From Thermodesulfobacteriota bacterium (GTDB lineage: Bacteria > Desulfobacterota_D > UBA1144 > Nemesobacterales > UBA2774): 64,000 nucleotides of DNA. Positions 40,268 to 64,000 of this stretch are shown in pieces; the stretch's first letter is position 1; the number at the start of each line of letters is the position of its first letter. The notes under the pieces were generated by a model, which had not been told where the DNA came from, did no database searches, and worked only from the letters and a program-made list of their open reading frames with translations. Made by a program: the position numbers and the translations under genes. The DNA is taken from positions 25,120 to 89,119 of the forward strand of contig OZ244197.1 in assembly GCA_965216785.1 (NCBI GenBank). The letters run 5' to 3'.

Positions 40268-40586
40268 CTAATCGGCTACACTGCCCTTTATTCAATTTTT
40301 AGGAAATCCCAGGGTGTTTTTGTACCTAATTCACTCTTTTCCTAGACAAAATCCTAGTTGAATCTATAATGTCTAGTACCGTATCGGAAATGTGTATTTC
40401 AGCGTGAAATCCATAACGTTCGATTCGTCCAAAGATTTTGTTATTACAATAGGAAATATGGGGATTTTACGGGCCGTTTGAGATTGCGGGTCATATATTC
40501 TTATGCTAAAATTATAAGCGAAAATTGATGGATAAATATATCTCTCCCCAAAAAGCAACTCATAGTAATTCAACAGGATTAAAAAT

Positions 40587-43400: not shown

Positions 43401-43417
43401 ATTATCGGAGAGAAAAC

Positions 43418-44686
43418 ATGTCGATTGATATTAAAGTTCCTGAGCTTGGAGAATCCGTAGTCGAGGCGACCGTAATCAGATGGTTCAAGTCCGTAGGAGA
43501 CCCCGTTAAAATAGGTGAGGCTCTCGTCGAGCTTGAAACCGAGAAGGCCAATTTTGAGGTTGCCGCTGAGAGACAGGGAGTACTGACTGATATTGTTAAA
43601 GGGGATGATGAGGACGTTGAGGTCGGAGACGTAATCGGGGTGATGGAGGAAGGCGCCGCAGCACAAAGCGGTGCGGAAGCAAAGGCAGAAGCTCATGAAG
43701 CCGAGGAAGTTAAAATTGAGGTGAATGAGGAAATAGAAGAAGTTACCGAAAGCGAGAAAGTGACGCCGGTTGCAAGACGTATAGCGGAAGAGCACGGAAT
43801 CGATATAAACCTGGTAGCCGGAACCGGGCATGGAAACCGCGTGACTAAGGAAGATGTTGAAAACTTTATCGCAAATCAAGGGAAAGGGGAACCTCGGGCA
43901 GAGGAAGTGTCAAACGCCGAGCCGATACGTAAAGATGTAGCACCGATTCCGGCAGAGCAGGCCCCGCAGATCACATTAGGAAGAGACGTAAGGGAAGAGC
44001 GCATCAAGATGTCCCGCAGGCGCAGAACCATTGCGCGCCGCATGCTAGAGGCCAAGCAGACGACAGCCATGCTTACGACGTTTAACGAGATAGACATGGG
44101 CGCTGTGATGGAGCTGAGGAAGCGAAGAAAAGAAATATTTAAGGAAAAATACGGTGTTGGCCTCGGGCTTAATTCGTTTTTTGTTAAAGCCGCCATCGGA
44201 GCGCTGAAAGAGTTCCCTCAGATAAACGCAGAGATCGACGGCGACGACATGATTATTAAGCATTATTATGACATCGGGATAGCGATCGGAGCCTCTGAAG
44301 GGCTTGTCGTACCTGTGCTCAGAAACGCTGACAGTATGACGTTTGCCGCAATAGAAAAAGCTATTAAAGAGTTCGCTCAAAAATCTGAAGACAACACGCT
44401 GTCGCTGGAGGACATAATGGGCGGCACGTTTACCATCACTAACGGAGGCGTATTCGGCTCAATGATGAGCACGCCCATATTAAACCCTCCGCAGGTCGGG
44501 ATATTGGGGCTCCATAAGATAGAGCCAAGACCGGTTGTAATTAACGGACAAATTGAAATTAGATCGATGATGTACGTTGCCCTCAGCTATGACCACAGGA
44601 TAGTGGACGGACGAGAGGCGGTGCAGTTCCTGGTGAGGTTAAAGGAGCTTATCGAGGATCCGGAGTCGCTGCTTCTAGAAGGGTAA
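43418..44686 (+). CDS. sucB: Dihydrolipoyllysine-residue succinyltransferase (E2)
   Basis: Lipoyl domain [10 protein letters not shown]...ETEKA, an Ala/Glu linker, an E3-binding domain and the catalytic [11 protein letters not shown]. Start set at MSIDIK, 6 nt after GGAGAG. Confidence 0.9.
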
Positions 44687-48066: not shown

Positions 48067-48258
48067 TGATAAGATTTTACAGTGACTTATGAATCTATTT
48101 CAAGTTTTGGAGCAGGGAAGTCTTAATCTATTGCTATGAAAAGATACACGAGTAGCTGTGTAATATTGCACAACTCTTGAGCTTTGGAGTCTCCTTTGTG
48201 CAAACACTGATTATCTAAGCTGCTGTGATTACAACAAATATTGAAATTTCATATAAGT

Positions 48259-48274
48259 GGCATATATATTGCAA
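48259..48274 (+). promoter_or_regulatory. Sigma-54 (-24/-12) promoter motif TGGCAT-N5-TTGCA
   Basis: gTGGCATatataTTGCAaat has correct GG-N10-GC spacing. It is intergenic, ~115 nt upstream of and co-oriented with the sigma-factor gene. Confidence 0.55.
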
Positions 48275-48387
48275 ATTTTAAGATAAAAACCGGATTAGGT
48301 AGGATGGCGGAGGATATTTACAGACTTAATAATTGTCCGCTCGGGGTTTATTCACACCAATTTATATCTAAATAAAGGAGAGTGACA

Positions 48388-49530
48388 ATGAAATATCAAG
48401 AAGCTCAGACAGCTCAGAACGAAAGCCCTTCCTTTAGTGATACATATGATAAATCCGCGGACAGTGTGGGCAATGAGAGGGAGCAGTTCTTCAATGTCCA
48501 AAATAGCGAAAGCGATTCGATAAAAGAAAACCACTCTGTACTGCGCCCACAGGAAAATAGAGCCCATACGGACGACCAATTCAGAATAATGAACGATTAC
48601 TTTAGTGATATAGCCAATGAACCCTTACTTACCCTGAGAGAAGAAATAGAGCTTCCGACAAAGATTAAAAAATGCGAATCTAAAGCAAAACAGATAGAGT
48701 CGTGGCTCGAATCAGAGGAGCAAAGCAAACAAAATGAGAGGGGCTGTCAATGCTTAATAAAAAACACTCAGAGATTACAAGCCTCACATAGAGCGTACAC
48801 AGAAAGATCCAAACAGCTTAAGAAGAGATTTGCTAACGCTAACCTGAGGCTGGTCATAAGTATAGCGAAGCGATACGTGAATCATGGCCTTCCTTTTCTA
48901 GACCTCATACAGGAAGGAAATATAGGGCTTATGAGGGCTATAGACCGATTTGATCATACAAAGGGATACAGATTCTCGACCTATGCTTCCTGGTGGATAT
49001 ACCAGTCTATTACAAGGGCGATATTGGTGCATAGAGGAGCAGTTAGGGTCCCCGTATACCTGCTTGAGGTAACGAACAGAGTCTACAGAACGAGATCAAT
49101 CCTACTTAAAGAAACCGGAAAGAACCCCACTTCTGAAGAGATAGCGGAGCAGTCCGGTGTGCCGATTAAGTATGTTAAGCGAATACTTAAAATTACAAAT
49201 GAATCAGTTAGCCTGGACTCGCCTATTGACGGTGAAAAGAGAACGCTCTACGATTTCATAGAGAACAGCGATTCGATTTCCCCTGACTATATTATCGTTG
49301 AGGATGAGCTCAAAAAAAGCATACGTCATTCCCTGTCGCTACTGAGCCCTAAAGAAGAAGAGGTACTTAGAATGCGGTTCGGAATAGACAGGAAAGATAC
49401 CGTGACACTGGATGACATAGGCAAAAAATTTCAACTTACGCGAGAACGAATCAGGCAGATTGAGAAAAAGGCTCTAAGGAAACTATCTGTTTGCAAGATG
49501 AGGGAAGCTCTTAAAAACTTCCGCACATAG
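48388..49530 (+). CDS. RNA polymerase sigma factor, sigma-70 family (group 2/RpoS-like size)
   Basis: Region 2 motifs [19 protein letters not shown] and [11 protein letters not shown], plus region 4 [30 protein letters not shown]. Start set at the ATG 7 nt after AAGGAGAG; the track uses an upstream GTG. Confidence 0.85.
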
Positions 49531-49706
49531 AGCTATTTGATAAGAAATCTGGAAATAATAGCAACTTTGTTTAATTTGCTACTGCTTTAAATAACACTAC
49601 TTCACTTGTGTGATTTGACACATTTGAGTGAATCTTATATAATGTTTTTTCACAATACCTGCACTAAGCAATTGATATTATTATATATTGCAAAATAACA
49701 GTGTCT

Positions 49707-49722
49707 TGGTACGGAAATTGCT
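49707..49722 (+). promoter_or_regulatory. Weak sigma-54-like motif TGGTAC-N5-TTGCT
   Basis: cTGGTACggaaaTTGCTc has correct spacing, but C to T at -24 position 4. ~57 nt upstream of the small secreted protein gene. Confidence 0.3.
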
Positions 49723-49778
49723 CTAATCAATAATGCCGGCCATAGGTGGCAGGCAAATCAATCCAGGAGGGTTACATT

Positions 49779-50006
49779 ATGAGATTACTCACCTATTTGT
49801 TCGCGCTCATGCTGGTAATGGGCGTTTCATTCGGCGGGGCTTCAATTATCACGAGCCAGCCAGTTATGGCAGAAGAAGGCGAAACTGCAGGCGGCGAAAT
49901 GACAGATGAGGCCGCAGGCGATGACGAAGGCGCGGAAGCAGCTACAGATGAAACCGCTGAAGGCGAAATAGAAGGCGGCGAAATGGCTGATGATGCCGAG
50001 AAATAA
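49779..50006 (+). CDS. Small secreted acidic Glu/Gly/Ala-repeat protein
   Basis: Signal peptide MRLLTYLFALMLVMGVSFGGASI. The mature part is ~45 aa with repeated GGEM[TA]D[ED]A. AGGAGG lies 8 nt upstream. A GC hairpin terminator follows. Confidence 0.5.
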   Translation: MRLLTYLFALMLVMGVSFGGASIITSQPVMAEEGETAGGEMTDEAAGDDEGAEAATDETAEGEIEGGEMADDAEK

Positions 50007-50030
50007 GATTTTGAGTTTTTGACTATAATC

Positions 50031-50059
50031 GGGGGGAGTACCATGCTCCCCCTTGATTG
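50031..50059 (+). terminator. Rho-independent terminator hairpin
   Basis: ggggggag-taccatg-ctccccc followed by ttgattg. Confidence 0.5.
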
Positions 50060-50107
50060 CCTCCAACCTATCTATAAAGTAATAAAATCCTATGATATCT
50101 TTTAGGT

Positions 50108-50320
50108 ATGTCTTTTCTTACGGCGGTATTGGTTGTATCGAATTTTTATCTGGCGCAAATGGGATCTGAATCTATCCAGATACAAAACCATCCGAAACTA
50201 TATTGCGACAGGGCGTATGAGATATGCCTGACAAAGATATGCATGAGCCAGGACCCGGTGGAGAAACAAAAATGCATGGACCGCTGTTACCAAGATTTAC
50301 TGGAATGTGAGAAGAGGTAG
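50108..50320 (+). CDS. Small cysteine-rich (6 Cys) protein with hydrophobic N-terminus
   Basis: Cys pattern C-x5-C-x4-C-x10-C-x3-C-x6-C. No strong RBS. Confidence 0.3.
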   Translation: MSFLTAVLVVSNFYLAQMGSESIQIQNHPKLYCDRAYEICLTKICMSQDPVEKQKCMDRCYQDLLECEKR

Positions 50321-50399
50321 TTGAAGGGACTCGGTATTCACCTTACGATTGTAAATTCTAATAGTTTTAGCCCTCCGGATATTTAATCGAAGATCAGCA

Positions 50400-50711
50400 C
50401 TATGTATTATCAGTATCGTTAGAATTATTGGTATCGTCGTCAGCCCGTCTGGAAAAAAGCCCTTTTATCTCTTTTCCGAGAATAGACCAGAAATCTTTAA
50501 GATTGGTATATTTATGGTCGATTTCTTCCAAATAATCGTCTAGATTGTCGATGGCTTCGTGCTGCTCCTCTTCCTTCTCTTTATTTAACTGCTGCTTTAG
50601 ATTTGTCAGAGAGTCTTCAAGATCGGTTATTTTACTCTCAAGCTCTTTTTTGCGGTCATTTGTCAATTTCATATTCATCACCTTACGCTCTCCTGGCTTC
50701 AATCTACTCAC
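50400..50711 (-). CDS. Coiled-coil protein coupled to the Na/Pi cotransporter (possible PhoU-like partner)
   Basis: Start overlaps the nptA stop (ATGA). The protein is heptad-rich. Confidence 0.4.
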   Translation of the reverse strand: MSRLKPGERKVMNMKLTNDRKKELESKITDLEDSLTNLKQQLNKEKEEEQHEAIDNLDDYLEEIDHKYTNLKDFWSILGKEIKGLFSRRADDDTNNSNDTDNT

Positions 50712-51913
50712 CAGCCAAGTATTTGGCTTACAAAGATAAATATCAAAGGCACTATGAAAAATACTGAAAAAATATACGCAACAACATAAAGCTTATTCTT
50801 TACGGCAGCGTAAGCAAGCTTTTGTGCCGCGATTAGCGGTATTGTTCGCAAAAACGGAATACCGAATATCACTACGACACCAAGCACATTATAGACCAGA
50901 TGGATTAATGCTATCTCTAACGCAAAAATAGCATTTGACCCGGTAATCGCGGTTGCGGCAAGAAGCGCCGTTATACATGTACCTATATTAGCTCCCAACG
51001 TAAACGGATACACTTTTTTCAGACTAAAGACACCGCTCCCCGCAAGCGGAACGATGAGGCTCGTTGTCGTAGATGATGATTGTACAAGAACAGTAATAAG
51101 CGCTCCCGCGGTAATCCCTGAGAGGGGACCGCGTCCCACGGCGCTGTGCAGTATTTCCTTTGCGCGCCCGACCATTAAAATCCTGAGCAATTTGCCTATG
51201 AACGTGATTACCAGAAATATCAGCGCTATGCCGATCACTATCATCGCTATCCCCGCTATAATTTCGGGAAGCCATCCTAGTACGGTTTCATGCAAAAAGT
51301 TAACCGGAGGGTTAATTATAGGCTTCATAAAATTCAGCCCTTTCATGGACATTGGGTTACCGCCAACCAGGATCTTGGCCAGAAACGCGCCTATTTTGTC
51401 CAAAATACCAAAAGCTATTTCCAGAGGCAGGAATATCAGAACATTCATAATATTAAAAGAATCGTGGACTGTAGCTGCCGCAAACGCTCTTTTGAATTCA
51501 TTACGTTCTTTTACATGCCCTAAGCTGACAATGGTATTCGTTATCGTCGTGCCAATATTCGCGCCCATCACCATCGGAATGGCTGTGGTTACGGGAAGTC
51601 CACCCGCTACAAGACCAACTATAATTGAAGTGACGGTGCTCGAGGATTGAACAAGCGCAGTGGCAAAGGTGGCGATGAGAAGCGCGGTTATGGGGTTACT
51701 TGCAAAGGCAAAAAGCTGTTTTGCCTGATCGCCTGCGGCCAGTTTAAAGCCACTCCCGATTAAAGCTACTGCAACCAATAACAAATAAATGAGACCAATT
51801 ATGAAAAGCCACTGTACCCATTTGGATTGAGTAGAAATTCCGGATAAACCTTCCGACTTATCGGCATGTCCAGTAACTGTTGAGGGTATGGTTTTACCTC
51901 TTGTGATATCCAT
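50708..51913 (-). CDS. Na+/phosphate cotransporter family protein (NptA-like)
   Basis: Two Na_Pi_cotrans repeat units with QSSSTVTSI / QSSSTTTSL motifs. Confidence 0.85.
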   Translation of the reverse strand: MDITRGKTIPSTVTGHADKSEGLSGISTQSKWVQWLFIIGLIYLLLVAVALIGSGFKLAAGDQAKQLFAFASNPITALLIATFATALVQSSSTVTSIIVGLVAGGLPVTTAIPMVMGANIGTTITNTIVSLGHVKERNEFKRAFAAATVHDSFNIMNVLIFLPLEIAFGILDKIGAFLAKILVGGNPMSMKGLNFMKPIINPPVNFLHETVLGWLPEIIAGIAMIVIGIALIFLVITFIGKLLRILMVGRAKEILHSAVGRGPLSGITAGALITVLVQSSSTTTSLIVPLAGSGVFSLKKVYPFTLGANIGTCITALLAATAITGSNAIFALEIALIHLVYNVLGVVVIFGIPFLRTIPLIAAQKLAYAAVKNKLYVVAYIFSVFFIVPLIFIFVSQILGW

Positions 51914-52040
51914 TTATAATCTCAGCAATAACTTTAACCAAATACGCTTTATGTGCAAAAGGTAAGCTACAACATAAATCCAGGGTTATATCGTTTTGAC
52001 AACCGGATAATTAAATGTATTAGGGAGTTCCAAGAGGAAA

Positions 52041-52085
52041 TGGTCGGGGTGGCCGGACTTGAACCGGCGGCCTCTGCGTCCCGAA
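52041..52085 (-). other. Orphan tRNA 3'-end fragment (T-arm + acceptor strand + encoded CCA), candidate integrative-element att remnant
   Basis: The reverse strand reads ...GCAGAGGCCGCCGGTTCAAGTCCGGCCACCCCGACCA, with a canonical T-stem/loop GCCGG-TTCAAGT-CCGGC. No matching 5' acceptor strand (CGGGGTG), D-arm or canonical anticodon arm lies upstream. Confidence 0.6.
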
Positions 52086-52361
52086 CGCGTAGGGACAAAA
52101 AGTCCTAAACGTTTGATATAACTATAAGTTCCTGAATATATTCGAATAAAAGAGATTAACCACAATTCTAATATATCGATTGTTTAGAATGTTTTGATTT
52201 AGTATAGACACCTATTTGGACACCTAATCGACTGAATATGCAGAGTGGGTCAAACCTCACCAAACATAGCGCCGACAACTATTATTGATTGGTATATCTT
52301 TGGTTCAATGTTTATGCTTGGCATCTTTGCATTTATACATGCTTAATTTTATCTCAATCGA

Positions 52362-53318
52362 CTATTTCTTATTTACCTGTAGAAACCCGATATTTTGGTG
52401 CTTATCAAAAGACATAATGATATTATCAATATCATATTTGGGAATATCGCTCGTACAATCTAACAATTCAAACTGATCACGACCAATGAGTTCCCAATCC
52501 ATAAAGCTTTCCATATAACCTATTTCTCTCATTTCTGGTAGAACATTTGTAATTAATAGCACACCTTGCGGCGATAGTTTCTGAAATAGTTTGTGAGTAA
52601 GCTTTTGTGCTGTTCTTTGTTTCAAATAATCATATAACCCTGAAGCATAAATTAAGTCATATCCTGAATGCTTGAAATTGTTTCTCAAAATATCGACAAC
52701 AGAGACAGCACTAGCCTGGACACTACTACCAGAGTAATTTCTGTTCACGTAGTTAACACTTTCTATGTCCTGGTCTATTGCAGTGTATTCTTCTATTTCA
52801 TCATTTCTAAAAGATTCAGATAGTTCAATCTCTCTTAGATGACCGCACCCTATCGACAGAACTTTTGTCTTATCGGTAGCACGGGCAACGCTGTCTATGA
52901 CTCTAGCAATATATTGCCTCCGAAGGCGTACGGAATCACATGCAGTCGTATTGAAAGTGTATTCTCGGATTTCGTTACCGAGTTCGTTAACACCATCAAA
53001 ATTCACACTTGGATGTCCATATATCATATCCAATAGGTATGCATCTCCAGCATATCCCCTGGGCTTATTGTAAGCCCTCTCTGTTATAGGGTCTTGATAT
53101 ATAAATTCTTTTATAGGATGGTCCATTAGATAATTCCCTACGATATATTTCCACTCACCTACAGAGCAATTTAGCTTTAGATGTCTTAACCCGGCGTAAA
53201 AATTATCTAGCGCCTCAGTAATTTTACTATTATTTATTTGATTGTATGCTTCCTCTAGTAGACAAGACGTAAAGTCATCACTATATATTTTCCGGGCTAA
53301 ATTATTTTGTGTCATCAT
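52362..53318 (-). CDS. Class I SAM-dependent methyltransferase with ~130-aa N-terminal extension
   Basis: Motif I VLSIGCGHLRE, acidic DQD, and post-I LIYASGLYDYL. Confidence 0.6.
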   Translation of the reverse strand: MMTQNNLARKIYSDDFTSCLLEEAYNQINNSKITEALDNFYAGLRHLKLNCSVGEWKYIVGNYLMDHPIKEFIYQDPITERAYNKPRGYAGDAYLLDMIYGHPSVNFDGVNELGNEIREYTFNTTACDSVRLRRQYIARVIDSVARATDKTKVLSIGCGHLREIELSESFRNDEIEEYTAIDQDIESVNYVNRNYSGSSVQASAVSVVDILRNNFKHSGYDLIYASGLYDYLKQRTAQKLTHKLFQKLSPQGVLLITNVLPEMREIGYMESFMDWELIGRDQFELLDCTSDIPKYDIDNIIMSFDKHQNIGFLQVNKK

Positions 53319-53350
53319 TCTCTCCTTTTAGATTATGGTTTCAAGTAGCT

Positions 53351-53533
53351 TTATGAGATTTCAATATTTCCAACTACATCCTTTAACTGTGATCCGTCCT
53401 CATGGGTGTATAAAATGTAAAGGGATACTTCTTTCACCCTCTCCTCTTCGGACTCTTCTGAACTTGCGGCATTAGCCGTCTTCTCCAGAAATGCTTTCAC
53501 AACTGCTAAATCTGATTGCTCTATTATCATCAT
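53351..53533 (-). CDS. Small acidic hypothetical protein (first gene of the sigma-54-driven leftward unit)
   Basis: AGGAGG lies 8 nt before the ATGATG at 53533. The track ORF begins 21 nt earlier at 53554. A sigma-54 motif lies just upstream. The methyltransferase gene starts 33 nt downstream. Confidence 0.45.
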   Translation of the reverse strand: MMIIEQSDLAVVKAFLEKTANAASSEESEEERVKEVSLYILYTHEDGSQLKDVVGNIEIS

Positions 53534-53570
53534 GACTAAGACCTCCTTTTTCATTATGTGACTTTATAAA

Positions 53571-53586
53571 TGCAACCGGTATGCCA
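53571..53586 (-). promoter_or_regulatory. Sigma-54 promoter motif TGGCAT-N5-TTGCA (reads leftward)
   Basis: The reverse complement of aaTGCAAccggtATGCCAaat is atTTGGCATaccggTTGCAtt. Confidence 0.55.
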
Positions 53587-53639
53587 AATATATAACTCTC
53601 CTTCATCATTAAGTTTTCTAAATTTCAATCTTGTCGGCA

Positions 53640-53656
53640 TGTAAACTACGTTTACA
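53640..53656. promoter_or_regulatory. Perfect inverted repeat TGTAAAC-tac-GTTTACA between divergent sigma-54 promoters (candidate enhancer/UAS)
   Basis: 7-bp arms. A further GTAAAC half-site lies 20 nt downstream (53661-53666). Confidence 0.45.
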
Positions 53657-53730
53657 TATCGTAAACTCCGTATACATATCAGTGATTCACACACACTAAC
53701 TTATTTAATGATTAAAGAGGCTTACGTTTT

Positions 53731-53746
53731 TGGCATTCTGATTGCT
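53731..53746 (+). promoter_or_regulatory. Sigma-54 promoter motif TGGCAT-N5-TTGCT (reads rightward)
   Basis: ttTGGCATtctgaTTGCTc. Predicted TSS ~25 nt before the AAGGAGG RBS of the collagen-like gene. Confidence 0.55.
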
Positions 53747-53781
53747 CTTTAAGGATATAGAACTTTAAGGAGGTAGTTAAA

Positions 53782-54576
53782 ATGAGGATATTGATATTTC
53801 TGAGTGTTTTATTTAGCGGTTTATACTTTTCACAGGATGTAACTGCCGAGGGTATAGTATTCTGCCAGAGTAAAATCTTTAAAGTCGTAAGATACAGGGG
53901 CGGCGAGCCCGGAAGCTGTAAACGATTTGAAAATGAGATTGTTATAACTACCGAAATCGGTGAGGCTGGACCTCCCGGGCCTCAGGGACTAGCTGGACCT
54001 GCAGGACCTCAAGGTGATCCTGGACCGGATGGACCAGCCGGACCTGAGGGGCCACAAGGACCGGCAGGACCTATGGGAGATGTCGGACCGGAGGGCCCAC
54101 CAGGTGATATAGACCAAGGTCTTTTGGATGATCTTCAGGAACAAATTGATATTCTAGCAAGTAAGGCATGTGGAGATGGAGAATTAGATATAATTTTTGG
54201 TGAAGAGTGTGATGATGGAAACGAATTAGACCAAGACAGTTGTTCATCTGATTGCTTAATCACAGGCCCAAGTGGTCCTTTTTGCGGTAATAGAACAATT
54301 GAAGATCCTGAAGTATGTGATGCCGATATAATTCTGACTAGTTGTATAGACTTGGGATTTGTAACAGGAGACCTAAGATGTTCGGACGACTGCCTATCTT
54401 TTGATACATCAGGTTGTCTTGACTCAGTATGCGGCAATAACAACCAGGAAAGTGGTGAAGTTTGTGATGGAACAGATTTGGTTGGTATAGATTGTACTGA
54501 CTTTGGATTCACAGGAGGTTCCTTAGCATGCGGTTTTGACTGTGTTAGTTTTAATACATCTAATTGTTCTAATTGA
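53782..54576 (+). CDS. Secreted collagen-like (G-X-Y) / Myxococcus-type cysteine-rich repeat protein
   Basis: Signal peptide. About 17 uninterrupted GXY triplets ([50 protein letters not shown]). Four cysteine-rich repeats of the CG[DN]G..E.GE.CDDGN / C.D.GF..G.L.C..DC.SF.TS.C type. Confidence 0.75.
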
Positions 54577-54664
54577 ATAAAGATGTCTCTGACGAATTAG
54601 GTTGTTTTATCTTGAATCTTTATAATTTATTGTCAATACTAGGTTAATTATGATTTCATAGATT

Positions 54665-57600
54665 TTGAAAGGAGTATGTTCTTTGGAGTGTTCAGCTTGT
54701 AAATCTGCAATCACATCAGGTGAAAAATTCTGCGGCAATTGCGGAAAGAAAGTAGGGGTTGAGTGTCAGAGCTGCGGCAATGAAAATCCCCTTAAGAACA
54801 AGTTCTGCTCAGAATGCGGCAGCAAACTGAGTAACGGAACTGTATCTAAACCTGAGAGCTTCTCAAAAGATATTCCTGTACAGCTTGCCAGAAAGGTGAT
54901 AGAAGAAAAAGCACATCTTGAAGGCGAGCGTAAACAGATAACGGTCCTATTTGCGGACATATCAAATTTTACAGCATTATCCGAGAAGCTCGATCCGGAG
55001 GACGTAAAGAACCTAGTGGACGGATGCGCCAAGCTTATCATTCAGGATATTTACCACTATGAGGGTACGGTAGACAAATTTACAGGCGATGGTGTTATAG
55101 CCCTATTCGGCGCTCCAATTTCACTAGAAGATCATGCAGCCCGTGCATTGAGCTCAGCGATTAAAATCCAGGAATCTGTGAAGGAATACAGCCGTAAAAT
55201 AAAGAGCGAATTTGGGTATGAATTAGAAATGAGGATCGGGATAAATACAGGGCTCGTTGTGGTGGGGAGTATAGGGAACGACCTTAGCATGGATTATACG
55301 GCTATGGGCGATACGATTAACCTCACTTCGAGACTCGAATCGTTTGCTGAACCCGGCACAATTCTGGTCAGCGAAAATACTCAAAGGTTAGTGAGTGACA
55401 GATTCAGTTTCGGTCCGGGCGAAGAATACCGAGTAAAAGGAAAAAAATCGGCCGTAACAGCTTACAAGGTATTAGATACGAAAGAGGATGTAACGCTTCG
55501 CGACTTTCAGACTGAAGGTAGACTGACCAGATTCGTCGGGAGAAAAAGAGAGATAAATACCCTCACTGATAGAATCGACCTGGCAAAGGAAAGCCAGGGG
55601 CAGATTATCTCCGTTATAGGGGAGGCTGGACTTGGGAAAACCCGCCTTATCCATGAGCTTAGAGACTTATTAGGAAATGAAGACCTTAGATGGGTAGAAG
55701 GCAAGAGCCTGTCTTATGGCAAGTCGATACCATATTTCCCTATCATTAACCTGCTGAAAAGTTTTTTTAGGATCGAGTCTGATTATAGCGAGCGGGTAAC
55801 TAAAAATAAAATCGAGAAGGAAATCAGAGAGATTGACTCAGATTTATTGTGGACTCTTCCATTCTTATACAGCCTGTTATCAATCGGCCCCTCCGATAAG
55901 AGTATTGAGCAAATGCACGAACGGGAGATAAGGAGGAAGAGCTACGAGGCTGTTAATTCCATCTTCCAGAGACAGAGCAGAAAGCAGCCGCTACTTTTAG
56001 TAGTCGAAAACCTCCACTGGGTGGACAGCGCTTCAGAGGAGCTTATAAATCACATTGTGCACAATATCGCCAGAAGCAGAATTATAATACTGGTCTCAAC
56101 CCGTCCGGGACATTTACATCTGTTTTCCGATAAATCCTACTATACTCAGATAATTCTAAGCCCCCTTTCAGACGCCGATTGCGAATCTATGATCAAGCAG
56201 ATCCTGAAAACTCAAGACGTGTCGCGGGACTTACAGGATTTAATTTTGAACAAATGCGAAGGAAACCCATTGTATCTGGAAGAGGTCGTTAAGGATCTAT
56301 TAGAGCAGGGCGCTATAAAGGTATCCATGGGAAAAAGCTCTCTCAGTAAAAAGGGCCATGAACTGGCAGTCCCGGGGACGATACTTAGTATTATAATGAG
56401 CCGGGTGGACAGATTAGATGAGAACCTTAAAAATACGCTCCAGTGCGCCTCCGTGATAGGGAGAGAGTTTTCGTTCCCTCTACTGAACGGCATTACAGGC
56501 GGCGGCATAGAATTACATGAAGACCTTGAAAAACTGAAAGAACTTGAGCTGATATACGACAAAGGACCCTCACCTGAGCCTGAATACTTGTTTAAGCACG
56601 CGCTCACTCAGGAAGCCACCTACAACAGCCTTCTCTTCGGTAGAAGAAAAGACCTTCACCTATCAATCGGGAAGCTACTCGAGAACACACATAAAAACAG
56701 GCTCGAAGAATATTATGAGACCCTGGCTTACCACTTCTATCACGGTGAAGACGTAGAGAAGTCTTTAGAATATATGACTCTAGCTGGAGACAAGGCTTTC
56801 AGGCTCCACTCTACTAGAGAGGCCATGGAGTTCTACCAAAAAGCTATTGAGCTCATTATTAAGCAGCCTGAAACCGAGGAAAATAAATCAAAAAGAGCAA
56901 ACCTTACCATAAAGCTGACAAGGGTGCTCAGATTTTTCGAATCCCCTAAAAATATACTAGAAATGCTCAAAAGCATTGAGGATATTGCTGATACACTCGA
57001 AGACTATAATCTAAGGTCCAGAATAATGTCTCTGATCGGTTTATTTACTGTGCTATTGGCTAAGAATCAGGAAGCCGGAATCCCCTATTGTGAGAAGAGT
57101 ATCGAGATCGCGAGCACTTTGAAAGATGAAAAAATCACATCACTGGCGTTCTATAGCCTCACAATGGCCTACTATTTTACAAGAGGAAAAAACGAAGGAG
57201 CCGACCTTTTCAAAAAAGCTTACAAAATTTCAAATAATGCCGGAGATTATTTTGAGGCGAGTCATATTCTGCTGCTCCATGGTATTTCACTTTGGCATTG
57301 GGGAGACTATGAGAAAGCCCAACAATACATAAAGAATTCTCGGGACTACGCTGAAAAAAGAAAAGCTCCTACAATGGCTGCACACAGTTATTGCGCACAT
57401 GGGGGTTACGGGGTGTTTTATGGAAACTTCACACAAAACTACGTCGACGACTGTAAAAAAGCGATGCAAATGTTTAAAGAATTAGACGACGTGTACTACT
57501 ATCTTATAGTTTCAGGCTGTTACTGGTACGGAGTTTACAAAACGACAGGGAATAAAGAAGCGGTTAAAAATCTCGAGGAGACAATAAAGAAAAAAGAAGA

Positions 57601-58036
57601 AAATGATATGTGGATATGGCAGCCGATGCTTTATTCATATTTAGCTGAAGCATACTGTGATTTAGGTATTGAAAGGGAAGCGCTCGCATCATGTAAAAAA
57701 TCGATAGAAATAGCAGAGGGAGCCGGGAACAAATTAGAAGCAGGCAGAGGCAGGATCGCCTTAGGAAAATATTATATAGATAAACAAAATCGAGACTTGA
57801 AAAAGGCGGAAGTGAGTTTTAAAGAAAGTGTTGAAAACTTTGATGTTATTGAAGCAAATTCGGGCCTTTGTATGAGTTATTTCAATCTCGGTGCACTTTA
57901 TAAAGAACAGAAAAACTATAAAGAAGCAAAAGCTTATCTTTCTAAAACTATACCGATGGCTAAAAAAGCGGGGTTATGGTGGTATTTACGGAGCTCAGAA
58001 CTCCTCTTAAACGATATAAAGGAAAGCACATCATAA
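54665..58036 (+). CDS. Double zinc-ribbon + class III adenylate/guanylate cyclase + STAND (AAA_16) NTPase + TPR signal-transduction protein
   Basis: N-terminal CxxC x4. Cyclase core ITVLFADISNFT...FTGDGVIALFGAP. P-loop VIGEAGLGKTRL, Walker B LLLVVENLHWVD and the GNPLYLEE motif, then multiple TPR-like helices. The start may instead be the TTG at 54683 (SD AAGGAG 8 nt upstream). Confidence 0.8.
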   Translation: MKGVCSLECSACKSAITSGEKFCGNCGKKVGVECQSCGNENPLKNKFCSECGSKLSNGTVSKPESFSKDIPVQLARKVIEEKAHLEGERKQITVLFADISNFTALSEKLDPEDVKNLVDGCAKLIIQDIYHYEGTVDKFTGDGVIALFGAPISLEDHAARALSSAIKIQESVKEYSRKIKSEFGYELEMRIGINTGLVVVGSIGNDLSMDYTAMGDTINLTSRLESFAEPGTILVSENTQRLVSDRFSFGPGEEYRVKGKKSAVTAYKVLDTKEDVTLRDFQTEGRLTRFVGRKREINTLTDRIDLAKESQGQIISVIGEAGLGKTRLIHELRDLLGNEDLRWVEGKSLSYGKSIPYFPIINLLKSFFRIESDYSERVTKNKIEKEIREIDSDLLWTLPFLYSLLSIGPSDKSIEQMHEREIRRKSYEAVNSIFQRQSRKQPLLLVVENLHWVDSASEELINHIVHNIARSRIIILVSTRPGHLHLFSDKSYYTQIILSPLSDADCESMIKQILKTQDVSRDLQDLILNKCEGNPLYLEEVVKDLLEQGAIKVSMGKSSLSKKGHELAVPGTILSIIMSRVDRLDENLKNTLQCASVIGREFSFPLLNGITGGGIELHEDLEKLKELELIYDKGPSPEPEYLFKHALTQEATYNSLLFGRRKDLHLSIGKLLENTHKNRLEEYYETLAYHFYHGEDVEKSLEYMTLAGDKAFRLHSTREAMEFYQKAIELIIKQPETEENKSKRANLTIKLTRVLRFFESPKNILEMLKSIEDIADTLEDYNLRSRIMSLIGLFTVLLAKNQEAGIPYCEKSIEIASTLKDEKITSLAFYSLTMAYYFTRGKNEGADLFKKAYKISNNAGDYFEASHILLLHGISLWHWGDYEKAQQYIKNSRDYAEKRKAPTMAAHSYCAHGGYGVFYGNFTQNYVDDCKKAMQMFKELDDVYYYLIVSGCYWYGVYKTTGNKEAVKNLEETIKKKEENDMWIWQPMLYSYLAEAYCDLGIEREALASCKKSIEIAEGAGNKLEAGRGRIALGKYYIDKQNRDLKKAEVSFKESVENFDVIEANSGLCMSYFNLGALYKEQKNYKEAKAYLSKTIPMAKKAGLWWYLRSSELLLNDIKESTS

Positions 58037-58068
58037 TTGACAATTTACTCATGGATAGAAGGTGAACT

Positions 58069-58818
58069 ATGGCATTTGAAGAAATAGAGAATAAAGTTGT
58101 TCTAATAACAGGGGGCTCGGAAGGTATAGGATTTGGGATTGCAAGAACTTTCGTCAATGCCGGTGCTAGAGTAGCTATCACAGGACGAAATATAAATAAA
58201 TTGGACAAAGCCAAAGAGCTTCTTGGAAATGATGTATTTTCGATTAATGCAGATGTTGCTCAAACCGAAAATTCCGCTGCCACTATTGAGAGAGTTGTCA
58301 GCGAATTTGGGAGATTGGACATACTAATTAACAACGCCGGAGAGGGGAATCAAAAACCGTTATCTAAATGCGATATTAACGACTATGACTTTGTTTTTAA
58401 TACGAACGTAAGGGGGTTATTCGCTCTGACTCAGGCCGCAACCCCTGAGCTTAAAAAAACAAGTGGGAATATCATAATAATAGCTTCGTCACTCGGTTTA
58501 AGACCGGCGCCCATGTACGGGGTCTATTCGGCTTCCAAAGCAGCTGTTATCATGTTCGCTCAGATGTGGGCTAAGGAACTTGCTCCGGACGTAAGAGTCA
58601 ATTCGATAAGCCCCGGCGGTGTAGATACACCGTTATGGGACAAGCTGGTTGGTAAGGAAAAAAAGGAAGATGTTCTCAGCTTTGTCAAAGAACGTCATCT
58701 GGTAAAAAAGCTCGGCAGCCCGGATGAGATCGGAGGAGCGGCTCTTTACCTTGCTACTGAAGACTGGGTAACCGGAAGTAATTTGGTGATAGACGGCGGT
58801 CTTTTCTATTCGATATGA
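58069..58818 (+). CDS. Short-chain dehydrogenase/reductase
   Basis: TGGSEGIGFGIA Rossmann motif, NNAG, and catalytic S...YSASKAAV. Confidence 0.85.
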   Translation: MAFEEIENKVVLITGGSEGIGFGIARTFVNAGARVAITGRNINKLDKAKELLGNDVFSINADVAQTENSAATIERVVSEFGRLDILINNAGEGNQKPLSKCDINDYDFVFNTNVRGLFALTQAATPELKKTSGNIIIIASSLGLRPAPMYGVYSASKAAVIMFAQMWAKELAPDVRVNSISPGGVDTPLWDKLVGKEKKEDVLSFVKERHLVKKLGSPDEIGGAALYLATEDWVTGSNLVIDGGLFYSI

Positions 58819-58867
58819 CTCTAAAATTCACGAATTAGAATCCCAAATTAGCTTCACTTTTCTTCAA

Positions 58868-58886
58868 CTGTAAACATCCATTACAG
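58868..58886. promoter_or_regulatory. Inverted repeat CTGTAAAC-N5-TTACAG (shares the TGTAAAC half-site with 53640-53656)
   Basis: ~150 nt upstream of the sigma-54 motif at 59036. Confidence 0.35.
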
Positions 58887-59035
58887 TTAAAATAACTATT
58901 TTCTGTTGTTAAGTTCCTTAAATCTCCCAAATTTTAAGTATATATTCAAATTCCAAGATTCACCCTCCTGGCAATCTCTGTAAGCAGGGTTGACACTTCT
59001 GTCAAATTATTCAATGTTTTCAGATGTTTAGAATT

Positions 59036-59051
59036 TGGCACACTGCTTGCA
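59036..59051 (+). promoter_or_regulatory. Sigma-54 promoter, perfect consensus TGGCAC-N5-TTGCA
   Basis: tTGGCACactgcTTGCAaaa. The GGAGG RBS and the ATG of the YdhR-like gene follow within 55 nt. Confidence 0.65.
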
Positions 59052-59088: not shown

Positions 59089-59430
59089 ATGATAGTAGTT
59101 CAGATTATTAACTTTAACTTAAGCGGTATGAGTGAGACGGAGTATGAGCAGACCTGTGATAATTTAGCCGGCTCATTCGCTGAGGTTCCAGGACTTCTGG
59201 CCAAATACTGGCTATCTGACCGGGCCAATAACAGTTACGGCGGGGTGTATTTATGGGAAGACCGTACGTCGCTTGAGCGTTTTACCCGCTCAGAGCTTTT
59301 TAATAGTGTTGCCACTCATCCCAATCTGGTAAACATCTCTTCACAGGTATTCGATGTGCTGGAGGGCCCTACCCGAGTTACAAGGGGCTTTGACGCTGTA
59401 AGCGCAATTGAAAAAGCCCGTGCGGTTTAA
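59089..59430 (+). CDS. YdhR-like putative monooxygenase (Dabb/ABM fold)
   Basis: VVQIINFNLSGMSETEYEQ...GLLAKYWLSD..NNSYGGVYLWEDRTSLERF..S.LF resembles YdhR (PF08803). Based on recall only. Confidence 0.5.
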   Translation: MIVVQIINFNLSGMSETEYEQTCDNLAGSFAEVPGLLAKYWLSDRANNSYGGVYLWEDRTSLERFTRSELFNSVATHPNLVNISSQVFDVLEGPTRVTRGFDAVSAIEKARAV

Positions 59431-59457
59431 GTACAAAAAACTCAAGGAGGTGTACAA

Positions 59458-59733
59458 ATGAAATTTATAGCGGTCCATCCACTAAATAGTCCTATAAGAG
59501 AGGACCAGATTACCGACGCAGCCAGAGCGTGCAGGGCGGAGAACAGTAACAACGCCTGCTGGATAGACAGCTGGACCCAGCTTAACGACGAAGGAGAGAT
59601 CACAGTTATCTATTGTCAGTACGACGCAAAGGACGCAGAATCCGTAGCAGATCTTCTTAAAAAGGGAGCACCAGACCTTCCGGTCGAGGGTATATACCTT
59701 ATGGGTAAGCTCGAAGCAGAAAATTACAGGTAA
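59458..59733 (+). CDS. DUF4242 (SCO4226-like, putative nickel-binding) protein, copy 1
   Basis: MKFIAVHPLN...CWIDSW..DEGEITVIYCQYDAKDAESV...EGIYLM. Confidence 0.6.
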   Translation: MKFIAVHPLNSPIREDQITDAARACRAENSNNACWIDSWTQLNDEGEITVIYCQYDAKDAESVADLLKKGAPDLPVEGIYLMGKLEAENYR

Positions 59734-59742: not shown

Positions 59743-59779
59743 GGGCGTTAGGTACGTATTGTATCCAACGCCCTTATAC
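59743..59779 (+). terminator. Possible terminator hairpin
   Basis: gggcgtt-N17-aacgccc followed by ttatacc. Confidence 0.35.
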
Positions 59780-59796
59780 CTGGGCGAGAAAGTGTC

Positions 59797-59826
59797 TTGA
59801 ATTAAGAAAATCTAAAGTGATATAAT
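59797..59826 (+). promoter_or_regulatory. Sigma-70-like promoter TTGAAT-N18-TATAAT
   Basis: About 19 nt before the GGGGAGG RBS of the EBP-STAND gene. Confidence 0.45.
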
Positions 59827-59844: not shown

Positions 59845-62505
59845 ATGCAGCGTTCCGCGGTAGAAAAAAATAAGATCATCGGCTCAAGCGCAAAGCTTTC
59901 TGAGGTCGTGGACTTAATTTTGAAAATCGCCGATACACCGACCAACATACTTATCACTGGTGAAAGCGGCACAGGAAAGGAGCTTGCCGCAAGTCTACTG
60001 CATGAAAAGAGCAGCCGCTCAGATAAACCTTTTATGGACATCAATTGTGCGGCTATACCCGAGACGCTTCTGGAGAGTGAGCTCTTCGGTATTGAAAAAG
60101 GGGTCGCGACGGGGGTTGAGAGAAGAGAGGGTAAAATCGAGCTATCCGCAGGGGGGAGCCTTTTCCTTGACGAAATAGGCGACATGAGCCTCGGCGCTCA
60201 GGCAAAGCTGCTCAGGGTCCTTCAGGAAAGGAGCCTTAAAAGAGTAGGCGGCAAAAGCGACATCGCCGTTGACCTGAGGATAATCGCAGCCACGAACAAA
60301 GACCTTCTTTCGGAGATAAAAAAGGGGAAATTCAGAGAGGATCTTTATTACAGGATCAACGAAGTACATATTAAGATGCCTTCCCTGAGGGAAATACGTG
60401 AGGATATACCCAGTTTGTCCGAGCATTTTCTTCATTCACTCTGTCATGAGCTCAATATGAATACACTCCGGTTTAGTGATTCAGTCCTGGACCGACTATC
60501 GAGCTACAGCTGGCCCGGAAACATCAGAGAGCTTAAAAACGAGGTTAAAAGGGCAGCGCTCCTGGCCGATGGCCATATAATAGAAGAAAGAGATTTATCT
60601 CCAGATATTTTGAATTTCTTTAAAAACAAGGATGCCAGTCAAGGTCTTGTAAGTGAAGCAACTTCGCTACCTCGAGCAGTAGAAGAGCTCGAAATCCAGA
60701 TGATAAAGCAAGCCCTAAAATCATGTCAGGGAAACAGGGTAAAGGCCTCTCAGATGCTTGGAATATCAAGGCAGGGACTAATAAAAAAGATAAGCAGATA
60801 CAGGATAGATCAGGGTAGCTCTCAGAAAAAGAAAATTTCAGACCGATTGCTCAAGTCAAGCAAAAGATCGTTTGTCGGAAGAGCAAATGAGATTAAAGAA
60901 ATAAAGGATCTAATCAAGTCCAAGAAGTCTACTTACTATGTCTTATTTATTCACGGCATAGGAGGGATTGGGAAGACAAGTATGGTTAAGGAACTTTTAA
61001 ATTCCTTGGACGCTAAGGTTAGTACAATTTACCTTGATTGTAGAGACATAGAGCCGACGGAGAACGGTTTTCTAACATCGCTGGGTAATGAACTTAATCT
61101 CAAGAGCACCAGAATTACAGTAGAGCGTGTTTTAAAGAGTTTGGAGAAGAGAAAGGAAAGAACACTACTGGTACTCGACACCTATGAGACTTTCGGACTT
61201 ATGGATACCTGGCTCAGAAAGACTTTTATACCATCTCTACCTGAGAATTTTCTTACAATAATCATCGGAAGACACCCGCCAAATAATTCATGGTTTACAA
61301 GCTCAGGCCTTGGGACTCTTATTAAGAGTATTGAGCTTGAGGAGCTTTCTTATGAGGACGCGATCAACTTCTTAATACTCCGTGGGCTTACGTCAGAAGA
61401 AGCAGAAAAGACCTATTCATTCGCCCGGGGGCACCCGATGGCTCTTGAGCTAGCAGCAAATTCGGTATCATCAAAACCCACTCGAGACATTTCATACAAA
61501 TCATTCCCTAACATTATTCATCAGCTGACGCAGGATTTCCTGCTGGGTCTAGATAAGAAGACCAGAAAGACGCTCGAGAGCCTCTCTTTAGTGAGGCGCT
61601 ATGACGACACCCTACTGAAACACTTACTAAACGAAGACTACGAAGAAGGTATCTTTGACAATCTCTTAGAGCTCCCATTCGTCAGCCTAACAGGAGAAGG
61701 ATGCTTGATACACGATATAGTAAGGGAAACTATAGCTCGTGAGCTATCACTCCGTGATCCGAAGAGGTATAAGGATTCGAAAAAAGCCGCATGGGTATAT
61801 CTGAATGAACAATCGCTTGCGAAGCACGGTGAATCACTCTGGCAAGCTACTGCCGATTTGCTATACACTATAGAAAACCCGGTTGTAAGGGATGCTTTCT
61901 TTCCTAAAGGTGCAATGGGTTATGTCGTCGAGCCACTATCTCATGAGGATAAAGAGCATGTAATTGATATTGTGCGTGAGTCCGAATCGGGTGAACCTGC
62001 CGATATAATTGAGAACTGGCTCACATATTATCCGGGCAGTTTCAGTGTTGTTAAAGATATAACCGGTGAAGTTGAGGCGTTCTTTATTTTATGCGAGCCT
62101 AATGAGATCGATAGGAGCCCTTTATCTGAGGATAAAATACTCGACGTTTGGTTTAAGCACTTGGAATCTAATCCTCTAGATTCCACAGACAAAGCGCTAT
62201 TTCTAAGGAGGTGGCTCAGTAGAGGACATGGTGAAGGTCTTTGTCCTGCACAAGGAGCTTCATGGCTCGACGTTAAGAGAAACTACATGGAGCTTAGACC
62301 TAAATTAAAAAGGCTTTATACAACACTGACTGATTTAGAAAACTATAAGCCTGTCGTATTACCGTTAGGTTTTTCTCTTTTAGATAGTTCAGAGATTGAG
62401 CTCGAAGAAACAACTTACTATTCCGCCATTATTGATTTCGGACCGGACAGCGTCGACGGATGGCTCAGAAAACTTATCGGTCTTGAGCTTGGTATTGGTC
62501 AGTAA
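59845..62505 (+). CDS. Fusion: sigma-54 enhancer-binding AAA+ core + Fis-type HTH + NB-ARC/STAND NTPase + C-terminal domain of unknown function
   Basis: aa 10-245 are an EBP AAA+ core (GESGTGKE, ESELFGIEKG-GVATGV, GGSLFLDEIGDMS, SWPGNIRELKN). HTH at ~aa 285-315. P-loop FVGRANEIKEI...IHGIGGIGKTSM, Walker B LLVLDTYE and GHPMAL at aa 330-560. It has no N-terminal receiver, GAF or PAS domain. Confidence 0.8.
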   Translation: MQRSAVEKNKIIGSSAKLSEVVDLILKIADTPTNILITGESGTGKELAASLLHEKSSRSDKPFMDINCAAIPETLLESELFGIEKGVATGVERREGKIELSAGGSLFLDEIGDMSLGAQAKLLRVLQERSLKRVGGKSDIAVDLRIIAATNKDLLSEIKKGKFREDLYYRINEVHIKMPSLREIREDIPSLSEHFLHSLCHELNMNTLRFSDSVLDRLSSYSWPGNIRELKNEVKRAALLADGHIIEERDLSPDILNFFKNKDASQGLVSEATSLPRAVEELEIQMIKQALKSCQGNRVKASQMLGISRQGLIKKISRYRIDQGSSQKKKISDRLLKSSKRSFVGRANEIKEIKDLIKSKKSTYYVLFIHGIGGIGKTSMVKELLNSLDAKVSTIYLDCRDIEPTENGFLTSLGNELNLKSTRITVERVLKSLEKRKERTLLVLDTYETFGLMDTWLRKTFIPSLPENFLTIIIGRHPPNNSWFTSSGLGTLIKSIELEELSYEDAINFLILRGLTSEEAEKTYSFARGHPMALELAANSVSSKPTRDISYKSFPNIIHQLTQDFLLGLDKKTRKTLESLSLVRRYDDTLLKHLLNEDYEEGIFDNLLELPFVSLTGEGCLIHDIVRETIARELSLRDPKRYKDSKKAAWVYLNEQSLAKHGESLWQATADLLYTIENPVVRDAFFPKGAMGYVVEPLSHEDKEHVIDIVRESESGEPADIIENWLTYYPGSFSVVKDITGEVEAFFILCEPNEIDRSPLSEDKILDVWFKHLESNPLDSTDKALFLRRWLSRGHGEGLCPAQGASWLDVKRNYMELRPKLKRLYTTLTDLENYKPVVLPLGFSLLDSSEIELEETTYYSAIIDFGPDSVDGWLRKLIGLELGIGQ

Positions 62506-62587: not shown

Positions 62588-62869
62588 CTACCTGTAATCT
62601 TCACCATATACCTCGGCTATCTGAAAGATACCATCAGATGGCGGCAGCTCTGGTACGGATGATGAGAGGGTCGCGTGAATGGAATTAACATCTTTACTGT
62701 CCCACTCACAAAAAACTCTCGACACTTTTCCGTCATCAGTCAACTGAAGCCAGCTCCTGACCCAGTAAGCATCAGTGCTGAGGTTGGCCTTGCACTTTTG
62801 TGCAATCGGCACAACGTCCTCGCCGTTTACTGGTGGGTTAACCGGGTGAATAGCTATATATCTAGGCAT
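62588..62869 (-). CDS. DUF4242 (SCO4226-like) protein, copy 2
   Basis: MPRYIAIHPVN...YWVRSW..DDGKVSRVFCEWDSKDVNSI...DGIFQIAEV. Paralogous to 59458-59733. Confidence 0.6.
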   Translation of the reverse strand: MPRYIAIHPVNPPVNGEDVVPIAQKCKANLSTDAYWVRSWLQLTDDGKVSRVFCEWDSKDVNSIHATLSSSVPELPPSDGIFQIAEVYGEDYR

Positions 62870-62911
62870 ATACTTATACCTCCTATTAGGATTTAATAAT
62901 TTAGATTTCGA

Positions 62912-63967: not shown

Positions 63968-64000
63968 CCATTGCCATGAATGTATATGTGAGGGAAAATG

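Follow-up and report, generated by a model that had tools for sequence, protein, structure and literature searches.

A 64-kb stretch of DNA from a Thermodesulfobacteriota bacterium (contig OZ244197.1; the whole stretch of 64,000 nucleotides analyzed is called the window) carries five sigma-54-type promoters, one of them in front of a gene for a sigma-70-family sigma factor, and close to them a gene for an enhancer-binding protein fused to a STAND NTPase. Do these five promoters form one regulon served by the neighboring activator, or do they belong to separate circuits? Our analysis suggests that they are five genuine sigma-54 promoters which probably make up two separate enhancer-dependent regulons, neighbors by chance in this DNA, and we propose activators and a mechanism for them. 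The promoters, named P1 to P5, are the following:

48258..48273, + strand: P1, TGGCATATATATTGCA, sigma-54-type promoter, 16.2 bits, upstream of the sigma factor gene
49707..49722, + strand: P2, TGGTACGGAAATTGCT, sigma-54-type promoter, 16.6 bits, upstream of a gene for a secreted acidic peptide of 75 amino acids (aa)
53571..53586, − strand: P3, TGGCATACCGGTTGCA, sigma-54-type promoter, 16.2 bits, divergent from P4
53731..53746, + strand: P4, TGGCATTCTGATTGCT, sigma-54-type promoter, 15.2 bits
59036..59051, + strand: P5, TGGCACACTGCTTGCA, sigma-54-type promoter, 17.8 bits

With both strands of the window counted, the motif TGGCAY-N5-TTGCW has four exact matches against 0.10 expected, and a count of four was reached in none of the 100 dinucleotide-preserving shuffles that served as the null model; relaxing the first element to TGGYAY adds the site at 49707-49722 (+), giving five matches against 0.22 expected. 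When both strands were scored with a hand-made −24/−12 weight matrix, the five reported sites were the five top scores (15.2-17.8 bits), the next-best site reaching 13.3 bits, and all five were found within 11 kb, with no site of that quality in the remaining 53 kb of the window. The exact GG at −24 and GC at −12, with fixed spacing, are present at every one of the five sites, all of which are intergenic and oriented toward a gene. The distance between the −12 element and the start codon, measured after three gene starts had been reassigned to an ATG with a clear ribosome-binding site, is 114 nt for P1 (ATG 48388), 56 nt for P2 (ATG 49779), 37 nt for P3 (ATG 53533, not 53554), 35 nt for P4 (ATG 53782) and 37 nt for P5 (ATG 59089, not TTG 59074). 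By every criterion available at the level of sequence these five sites are genuine sigma-54 promoters, and each has a conserved palindrome 50-160 bp upstream, a candidate activator site.

These results bear out most of what the initial annotation of this DNA had put forward about the motifs, namely a local excess over a chance expectation of about 0.1, a clustering of the sites within 11 kb, and a placement of all sites between genes and in the correct orientation (the measured gaps now being 35-114 nt). The positions 53571, 53731, 59036 and 49707 that it gave are correct and the first motif begins at 48258 instead of 48259; the site at 49707, which it had called a weaker variant, actually has the second-best weight-matrix score. 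Its description of the gene content agrees with the Pfam and NCBIfam annotation.

The palindromes upstream of the promoters fall into two classes, called type A and type B, which are listed without strand:

48157..48172: TGTGTAATATTGCACA, type A palindrome (TGT-N10-ACA), 101 bp upstream of P1, a candidate enhancer
49583..49598: TGCTTTAAATAACACT, distal and degenerate type A copy upstream of P2, recognized by alignment
49607..49622: TGTGTGATTTGACACA, type A palindrome, 100 bp upstream of P2
53640..53676: TGTAAACTACGTTTACA and CGTAAACTCCGTATACA, type B pair, 20 bp centre to centre, midway between P3 and P4
58869..58885: TGTAAACATCCATTACA, distal type B site upstream of P5, conserved in L037 and L038
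58979..58995: TGTAAGCAGGGTTGACA, proximal type B site upstream of P5, 110 bp from the distal one

The type A consensus, TGTGT-N6-ACACA (16 bp), is common to the regions upstream of P1 and P2, which we call module A together with the sigma factor block; the type B palindrome, GTAAAC-N3-GTTTAC within a 17-bp TGT-N11-ACA, is common to P3, P4 and P5, which make up module B together with the activator island. The closest genomes are those of Candidatus Dadabacteria and related metagenome-assembled genomes (MAGs), in which several class III nucleotide cyclases are encoded. We compared the window with them in two ways, anchored either on the sigma factor gene (the window and six orthologous loci, including L029, L031, L032 and L034-L036, with 57-87% protein identity) or on the activator gene (six loci: L001, L003, L004, L006, L037 and L038).

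In the alignment of the intergenic region between recG and the sigma factor gene, the P1 elements TGGCA...TTGC are invariant in all seven sequences (sigma identity 57-87%) at a mean column identity of 44%, and in the region between the sigma factor gene and the following small open reading frame (ORF) the P2 elements TGGT...TTGC are likewise invariant in 7/7 regions; over both the P1 and P2 regions the mean column identity is 44-61%. The palindrome TGTGTAATATTGCACA is conserved in L029 and L031, with an unchanged offset, and is recognizable in L032, L034 and L036. Upstream of P2 there are two type A copies in tandem; the second is degenerate in the window, and L032, L034 and L035 have a clean TGTG-N8-CACA at this position. 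The offsets of 100-101 bp from P1 and P2 are kept in the two closest relatives. With at most one mismatch allowed, type A sites cluster upstream of P1 and P2 in every sigma-anchored locus; of the six activator-anchored loci only L003 has any, a single stray match. Six relatives share the gene order 2-oxoglutarate dehydrogenase, E2, a glycosyltransferase (in most genomes), recG and then, divergently, the sigma factor gene and the small ORF, and within 6-10 kb of their sigma blocks no activator gene was found. Module A thereby belongs to the syntenic core of the lineage. Upstream of P2, at 49615-49643, there is also a perfect sigma-70 consensus promoter (TTGACA-17-TATAAT, 12/12), with hexamers that are conserved only in the closest relatives; sigma-70-like hexamers are present at 48241-48270 as well.

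The two genes that P1 and P2 precede are these:

48388..49530, + strand: sigma-70-family sigma factor, 380 aa, with regions 1.2, 2, 3 and 4 (Pfam/NCBIfam)
49779..50006, + strand: small ORF (75 aa) whose product has a signal peptide and a tail of acidic PGGEM-DDA repeats, target of P2

The sigma factor scored best against RpoD and RpoS models, yet below every NCBIfam equivalog cut-off (RpoD_Cterm, 282 for a cut-off of 354; rpoS_proteo, 265 for 379; PRK05658, 331 for 555). Group 1 and 2 sigmas have the region 2 motifs WWIRQ and IR(I/L)P(V/I)H; in this protein they read WWIYQ and VRVPVY. Because of the scores below cut-off and the region 2 motifs, we take it for a divergent alternative sigma rather than the housekeeping factor. 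Among its database relatives the family, of about 380 aa, is confined to Dadabacteria-like MAGs.

Module B has a different distribution. Four type B sites are found in the window with up to two mismatches, all upstream of P3-P5. The two sites of the central pair lie 62 and 82 bp from one of the divergent promoters P3 and P4 and 63 and 83 bp from the other, and pairs with equal spacing are present in L037 (3090/3110) and L001 (14985/15005); at P5 the two sites are 108-110 bp apart in L037 and L038. P3 is conserved in L037 and, as divergent partner, in L001, P4 in L037 and L001, and P5 in L037 and L038, the −24/−12 elements of P3/P4 and of P5 being invariant in three of three genomes each. L037, with an activator 82% identical to that of the window, has the whole island with matching order, promoters and site pairs, and in addition two more sets of promoter and site pair, before a luciferase-like gene and beside an activator with GAF, AAA+ and helix-turn-helix (HTH) domains. 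L038 (activator 74% identical) keeps only the trio of YdhR-like gene, SCO4226-like gene and activator, also conserved in L037, with P5 and both of its sites. L001, L004 and L006 have type B sites beside sigma-54 promoters, adjoining homologous activator or STAND genes, and between the divergent promoters of L003 there is a longer, related palindrome; an ORF of L006 (8246-9664) considered as an activator proved by alignment to be an unrelated protein. In L037 the island borders on an integrase, and in L038 it is enclosed by UDG and LeuRS; in neither genome does it adjoin the sigma gene. The adjacency of modules A and B in the window looks lineage-specific, because the activator island is elsewhere in L037 and L038.

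The island probably extends beyond the analyzed DNA. A luciferase-like gene runs off the end of the window (62588-64000), and a weak SCO4226-like paralogue lies downstream. The luciferase-like operon of L037 (12288-15798) is served by a sigma-54 promoter and a type B pair of its own, and after it comes a GAF-type activator with the sigma-54 contact loop GVATGV. Because this operon has both, a sixth promoter and a second, GAF-domain activator are probably to be found just past position 64000.

The compact sigma-54 regulon beside its activator that the initial annotation had proposed is thus supported for P3-P5, whose common palindrome travels with the activator family, and not supported for P1 and P2, which have another palindrome and a separate synteny. 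The promoter before a sigma-70-family gene, which it had compared to known cascades, is present in 7/7 genomes compared, and a cascade is a fair reading of it.

The activator gene and the element in front of it are as follows:

59845..62505, + strand: activator, 886 aa, with sigma-54 AAA+ domain, lid, HTH_8, STAND NTPase, helical region and GNAT-like domain
59744..59826, + strand: conserved hairpin, then a sigma-70-type promoter (extended −10, TTGAAT-N18-TATAAT, 59797-59826)

The AAA+ domain of the activator matches PF00158 (Sigma54_activat) with 225 bits over residues 11-176, with the Walker A (GESGTGKE) and Walker B (FLDEIG) motifs intact, and there is no N-terminal regulatory domain in front of it (it begins at residue 11). 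The Fis-type HTH_8 (residues 279-319, E 2e-12) is internal instead of in the usual C-terminal position, and from residue 343 it is followed by a STAND P-loop NTPase with AAA_16, NACHT, NB-ARC and nSTAND matches, Walker A GIGGIGKT and Walker B LLVLD. The protein, which the earlier view took for a candidate enhancer-binding protein, has the AAA+ core and the Fis-type HTH of one but no canonical GAFTGA loop, and we class it as a variant instead of a canonical member. The last ~190 residues (window 61795-62502) have no Pfam match; their predicted fold, which has a confident core (mean predicted local distance difference test score, pLDDT, 77), gave GNAT acetyltransferases as all the top Foldseek PDB matches (best E 5e-7), and on this predicted fold the GNAT-like domain may be a ligand sensor.

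Residues 329-883 of the activator align gap-free to residues 3-557 of a free-standing 736-aa STAND protein of L001, which has an extra C-terminal class III cyclase domain and adjoins a GAF-AAA+-HTH activator. In L001 (Dadabacteria CSP1-2, 9377-13471) the components are thus split between a GAF-AAA+-HTH activator and a STAND-cyclase protein. By analogy with L001 the window activator might have been expected to end in a cyclase domain, but this was rejected, since there is no Pfam match, the alignment ends before the cyclase and the fold is GNAT-like. The split arrangement suggests a cyclic-nucleotide link between the two L001 proteins, which the fusion in the window would bypass. The fused architecture recurs in 17 protein clusters, and related fusions to cyclase-AAA_16-TPR proteins exist (1430-1540 aa); no description of a fusion of STAND and enhancer-binding protein was found in the searched literature, nor anything specific on sigma-54 or rpoN in Dadabacteria.

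The hairpin before the activator gene is GC-rich and shows compensatory changes, and the extended −10 promoter that follows it is invariant in the relatives. The element at 59744-59826 is a probable boundary between the activator gene and the P5 operon, and because of this conserved hairpin and extended −10 promoter of its own the activator gene is probably expressed independently of P5, constitutively. Read-through from P5 into the activator gene, which would amount to positive autoregulation, was considered and dropped as our main interpretation in view of the hairpin and the invariant promoter in the 111-nt gap.

We propose that the sigma-54 holoenzyme would wait in closed complexes at the five promoters. 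In module A, another activator would bind TGTGT-N6-ACACA about 100 bp upstream of the promoters (about 120 bp before the start site) and would switch on the sigma gene and, independently, the gene of the small secreted acidic peptide. Through the sigma factor, RNA polymerase would in turn be redirected to a secondary set of genes, giving a cascade from sigma-54 to a second sigma. In module B, dimers of the local activator would bind the GTAAAC-N3-GTTTAC palindromes 50-160 bp upstream of P3-P5, probably working with the GAF-domain paralogue expected past position 64000. A ligand at the STAND/GNAT-like part would cause nucleotide-dependent oligomerization and with it the assembly of the AAA+ ring, by which the closed complexes would be opened. 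An ancestral cyclic-nucleotide relay, of the kind of the GAF activator and STAND-cyclase protein of L001, may have been replaced by the fusion. The motifs with their statistics and conservation, the two palindrome classes, the synteny and the domain architecture are read directly from the sequences; we infer which protein binds which palindrome, the operon extents, the target functions, the activation mechanism and the physiological signal in this model.

Several points count against the model, and we weigh them here together with the alternatives. The weight matrix was drawn up by hand from the published consensus; the RpoN box had no match in six-frame translations of the window and related loci (~712 kb), and Pfam scans of all large ORFs of the window found no rpoN gene and no activator gene besides 59845-62505, the presence of rpoN in the genome being suggested by the proteins with sigma-54-interaction domains. 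It is vanishingly unlikely that the motif matches are products of chance, or sites of an unrelated DNA-binding protein: the motif has just 11 specified positions and AT-rich intergenic DNA favours words like TTGCA, but no shuffle out of 100 gave four matches, all sites are intergenic and correctly oriented, and GG and GC are invariant across orthologues while spacers and flanks vary, and by these conservation data the chance reading is effectively refuted. The palindromes were assigned to proteins by co-localization across genomes only. A single compact regulon, in which the neighboring protein fires all five promoters and the sigma gene is its direct target, would fit the presence of five promoters within 11 kb of the sole activator gene in the window, as well as the general form TGT-N10/11-ACA shared by both palindrome classes. 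Half-sites and spacing differ between the classes, however; these split almost cleanly between sigma-anchored and activator-anchored loci, P1, P2 and the type A sites persist in six relatives whose sigma blocks have no activator gene within 6-10 kb, and the island is elsewhere in L037 and L038, all of which makes a single regulon quite unlikely. Alternatively, the type A palindromes could be operators of a CRP/FNR-like or other dimeric regulator acting on P1 and P2 or on the sigma-70 promoter, with the true P1/P2 activator using weaker sites or acting from solution. TGTGT-N6-ACACA is one position per half-site away from the CRP consensus, TGTGA-N6-TCACA; the −35 hexamer of the 12/12 sigma-70 promoter at 49615-49643 lies inside the type A palindrome TGTGTGATTTGACACA, and there are the several class III nucleotide cyclases of these genomes. 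Nevertheless we hold this to be rather unlikely, since the palindrome is the clearest conserved element upstream of P1 apart from the block next to recG, its offset is fixed at 100-101 bp for both promoters in the window and the two closest relatives, as is typical of enhancers, TGT-N10-ACA is the form of the NifA enhancer, and conservation of the sigma-70 hexamers stops at the closest relatives.

The contact loop of the activator also speaks against the model. The Phe of GAFTGA is normally required for the contact with sigma-54, as known from PspF mutagenesis, and the window activator reads GVATGV (residues 79-92, 60079-60120), with Ala in place of Phe. GVATGV is also the loop of the activator orthologues and of 116 among the 120 nearest database proteins, mostly GAF activators of about 510 aa from several phyla. 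DVUA0100 of Desulfovibrio vulgaris Hildenborough is the sole GVATGV activator that we found in the searched literature; its sigma-54 regulon was predicted computationally, and the source paper states that the loop substitutions “might interfere” with sigma-54 binding (PMC4641369). Such proteins could then be unable to engage sigma-54 and act as sigma-70 regulators or repressors, like TyrR or Rhodobacter NtrC, a canonical GAFTGA activator elsewhere firing P3-P5. The missing aromatic residue of the L1 loop and the reservation of the source paper favour this possibility, but we give it a poor chance of being right: GVATGV is kept in 116/120 relatives, which indicates a selected function and not decay, Walker A and B are intact, genes for GVATGV proteins are flanked by sigma-54 promoters and a common palindrome in at least six genomes, and a like association was predicted for DVUA0100. 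That the variant is so strictly kept, and constantly accompanied by sigma-54 promoters, speaks for its being functional. It is possible, although on the doubtful side, that GVATGV proteins as a whole are a widespread functional class of sigma-54 activators without the aromatic residue, that the window member has, in place of the usual N-terminal sensor, a STAND/GNAT-like one whose ligand-driven oligomerization assembles the AAA+ ring directly, and that the split arrangement in relatives reflects an ancestral cyclic-nucleotide relay which the fusion cut short. Two separate sigma-54 regulons, each with its own palindrome, are what we consider probable for this locus.

Two further genes of the window are these:

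45538-48066, − strand: recG (Pfam/NCBIfam)
− strand: Na/Pi transporter gene (Pfam/NCBIfam)

At recG, a conserved TAAAAT hexamer stands 7 nt before the ATG and CTGTAAAATC is invariant in the relatives (window 48067-48103); the recG mRNA may be leaderless. A pair of 2-oxoacid:ferredoxin oxidoreductase genes adjoins those for a full 2-oxoglutarate dehydrogenase E1/E2 (window 36307-44686), an arrangement kept in relatives. In the region 49779-50320 a 70-aa Cys-rich ORF is conserved as well as the 75-aa ORF, both of them without a family match. The P2 leader has a hairpin (~49732-49757) between P2 and the ribosome-binding site, which relatives keep with differing stems; RNAalifold gave for it a weak consensus of four pairs from a poor alignment, and an Rfam scan of the whole window had no match, so the leader hairpins fit no described RNA family.

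The operons of module B and their genes are these:

52362..53533, − strand: P3 operon, a 60-aa acidic protein (53351-53533) and an S-adenosylmethionine-dependent TehB-like methyltransferase (52362-53318)
53782..58818, + strand: probable P4 operon, with a secreted collagen-like/Cys-repeat protein (53782-54576) first
54665-58036, + strand: zinc-ribbon-class III cyclase-STAND-TPR protein, second gene of the probable P4 operon
58069-58818, + strand: short-chain dehydrogenase, third gene of the probable P4 operon
59089..59733, + strand: P5 operon, YdhR-like (ABM fold) and SCO4226-like (DUF4242) proteins

The gene pair of the 60-aa protein and the methyltransferase is also found in L037. In the P4 operon the gaps are 88 and 32 nt, no + strand terminator is predicted between the genes and the gene order is identical in L037, which is consistent with co-transcription. 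Its second gene encodes a protein of 1123 aa with a double zinc ribbon, a class III nucleotide cyclase, a STAND NTPase and TPR, the second STAND signalling protein of the island, and is kept in L001 and L037. The predicted targets (small secreted proteins, a methyltransferase, oxidoreductases and a cyclase) hint at a stress or detoxification response. An anti-phage defence island was considered and rejected, PADLOC having given generic domain-level matches only (RtcR-type models for the AAA+ core, PycC for the class III cyclase). The integrase that the island abuts in L037 is of phage type (169-1245), a hint that the module B island may be mobile.

Taken together, the promoters, the two enhancer motifs and the target operons amount to a first map, open to testing, of how sigma-54 regulates genes in an uncultivated Dadabacteria-like lineage. 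With an alternative sigma gene conserved behind a sigma-54 promoter, a sigma cascade of two tiers probably belongs to the core of this lineage. The activator family departs from two textbook rules, as it has no GAFTGA Phe and here carries a C-terminal STAND-GNAT-like sensor instead of an N-terminal one, and the GVATGV clade is broad and barely described. If it is true that GVATGV proteins activate sigma-54, the model of the L1-loop contact needs widening, and assembly driven by STAND would be, if true, a new way of gating an enhancer-binding ATPase.

By kind, however, the promoters and the activator are variants of known systems. Module A resembles the sigma-54-sigma-S cascade Rrp2-RpoN-RpoS of Borrelia burgdorferi (PMC11109971) and the activation of the hrpL sigma gene by HrpR/HrpS and sigma-54 in Pseudomonas syringae (PMC3105312), in having a sigma-54 promoter directly before a sigma-70-family gene, with an enhancer-binding protein that would gate a second sigma regulon. 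Unlike these, the window sigma is neither an RpoS orthologue nor an extracytoplasmic function (ECF) sigma, there is no adjacent activator gene, and the lineage is uncultivated and Dadabacteria-like. With the NifA type, the window shares an activator core whose nearest relatives are GAF-AAA+-HTH proteins of ~510 aa, labelled “Nif-specific regulatory protein” by JGI, and palindromes of the form TGT-N10/11-ACA 50-160 bp upstream of −24/−12 promoters; it differs in that there are no nif genes and that the activator has no GAF domain, a C-terminal STAND-GNAT-like extension and GVATGV for GAFTGA.

MalT is established to work by ligand-induced multimerization. Like the STAND regulators MalT, AfsR and GutR and the cyclase-STAND proteins, the window activator couples a STAND NTPase and a C-terminal sensor to a DNA-binding or signalling output, and a cyclase-AAA_16-TPR protein is itself encoded in the island. 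In contrast to MalT, AfsR and GutR, its N-terminal output part is a full sigma-54 AAA+ core with a Fis-type HTH, so that there are two oligomerizing ATPases per chain, and its sensor end is GNAT-like, not TPR or LuxR-associated. It resembles PspF in having no N-terminal regulatory domain, with the AAA+ domain starting at residue 11; whereas PspF is controlled in trans by PspA, the control of the window activator would probably be exerted by the fused C-terminal STAND module. The DVUA0100 operon, too, adjoins divergent sigma-54 promoters with a common predicted binding motif (PMC4641369); unlike the window activator, DVUA0100 has a long N-terminal region, no STAND fusion and a predicted role in the control of plasmid-borne type III secretion genes.

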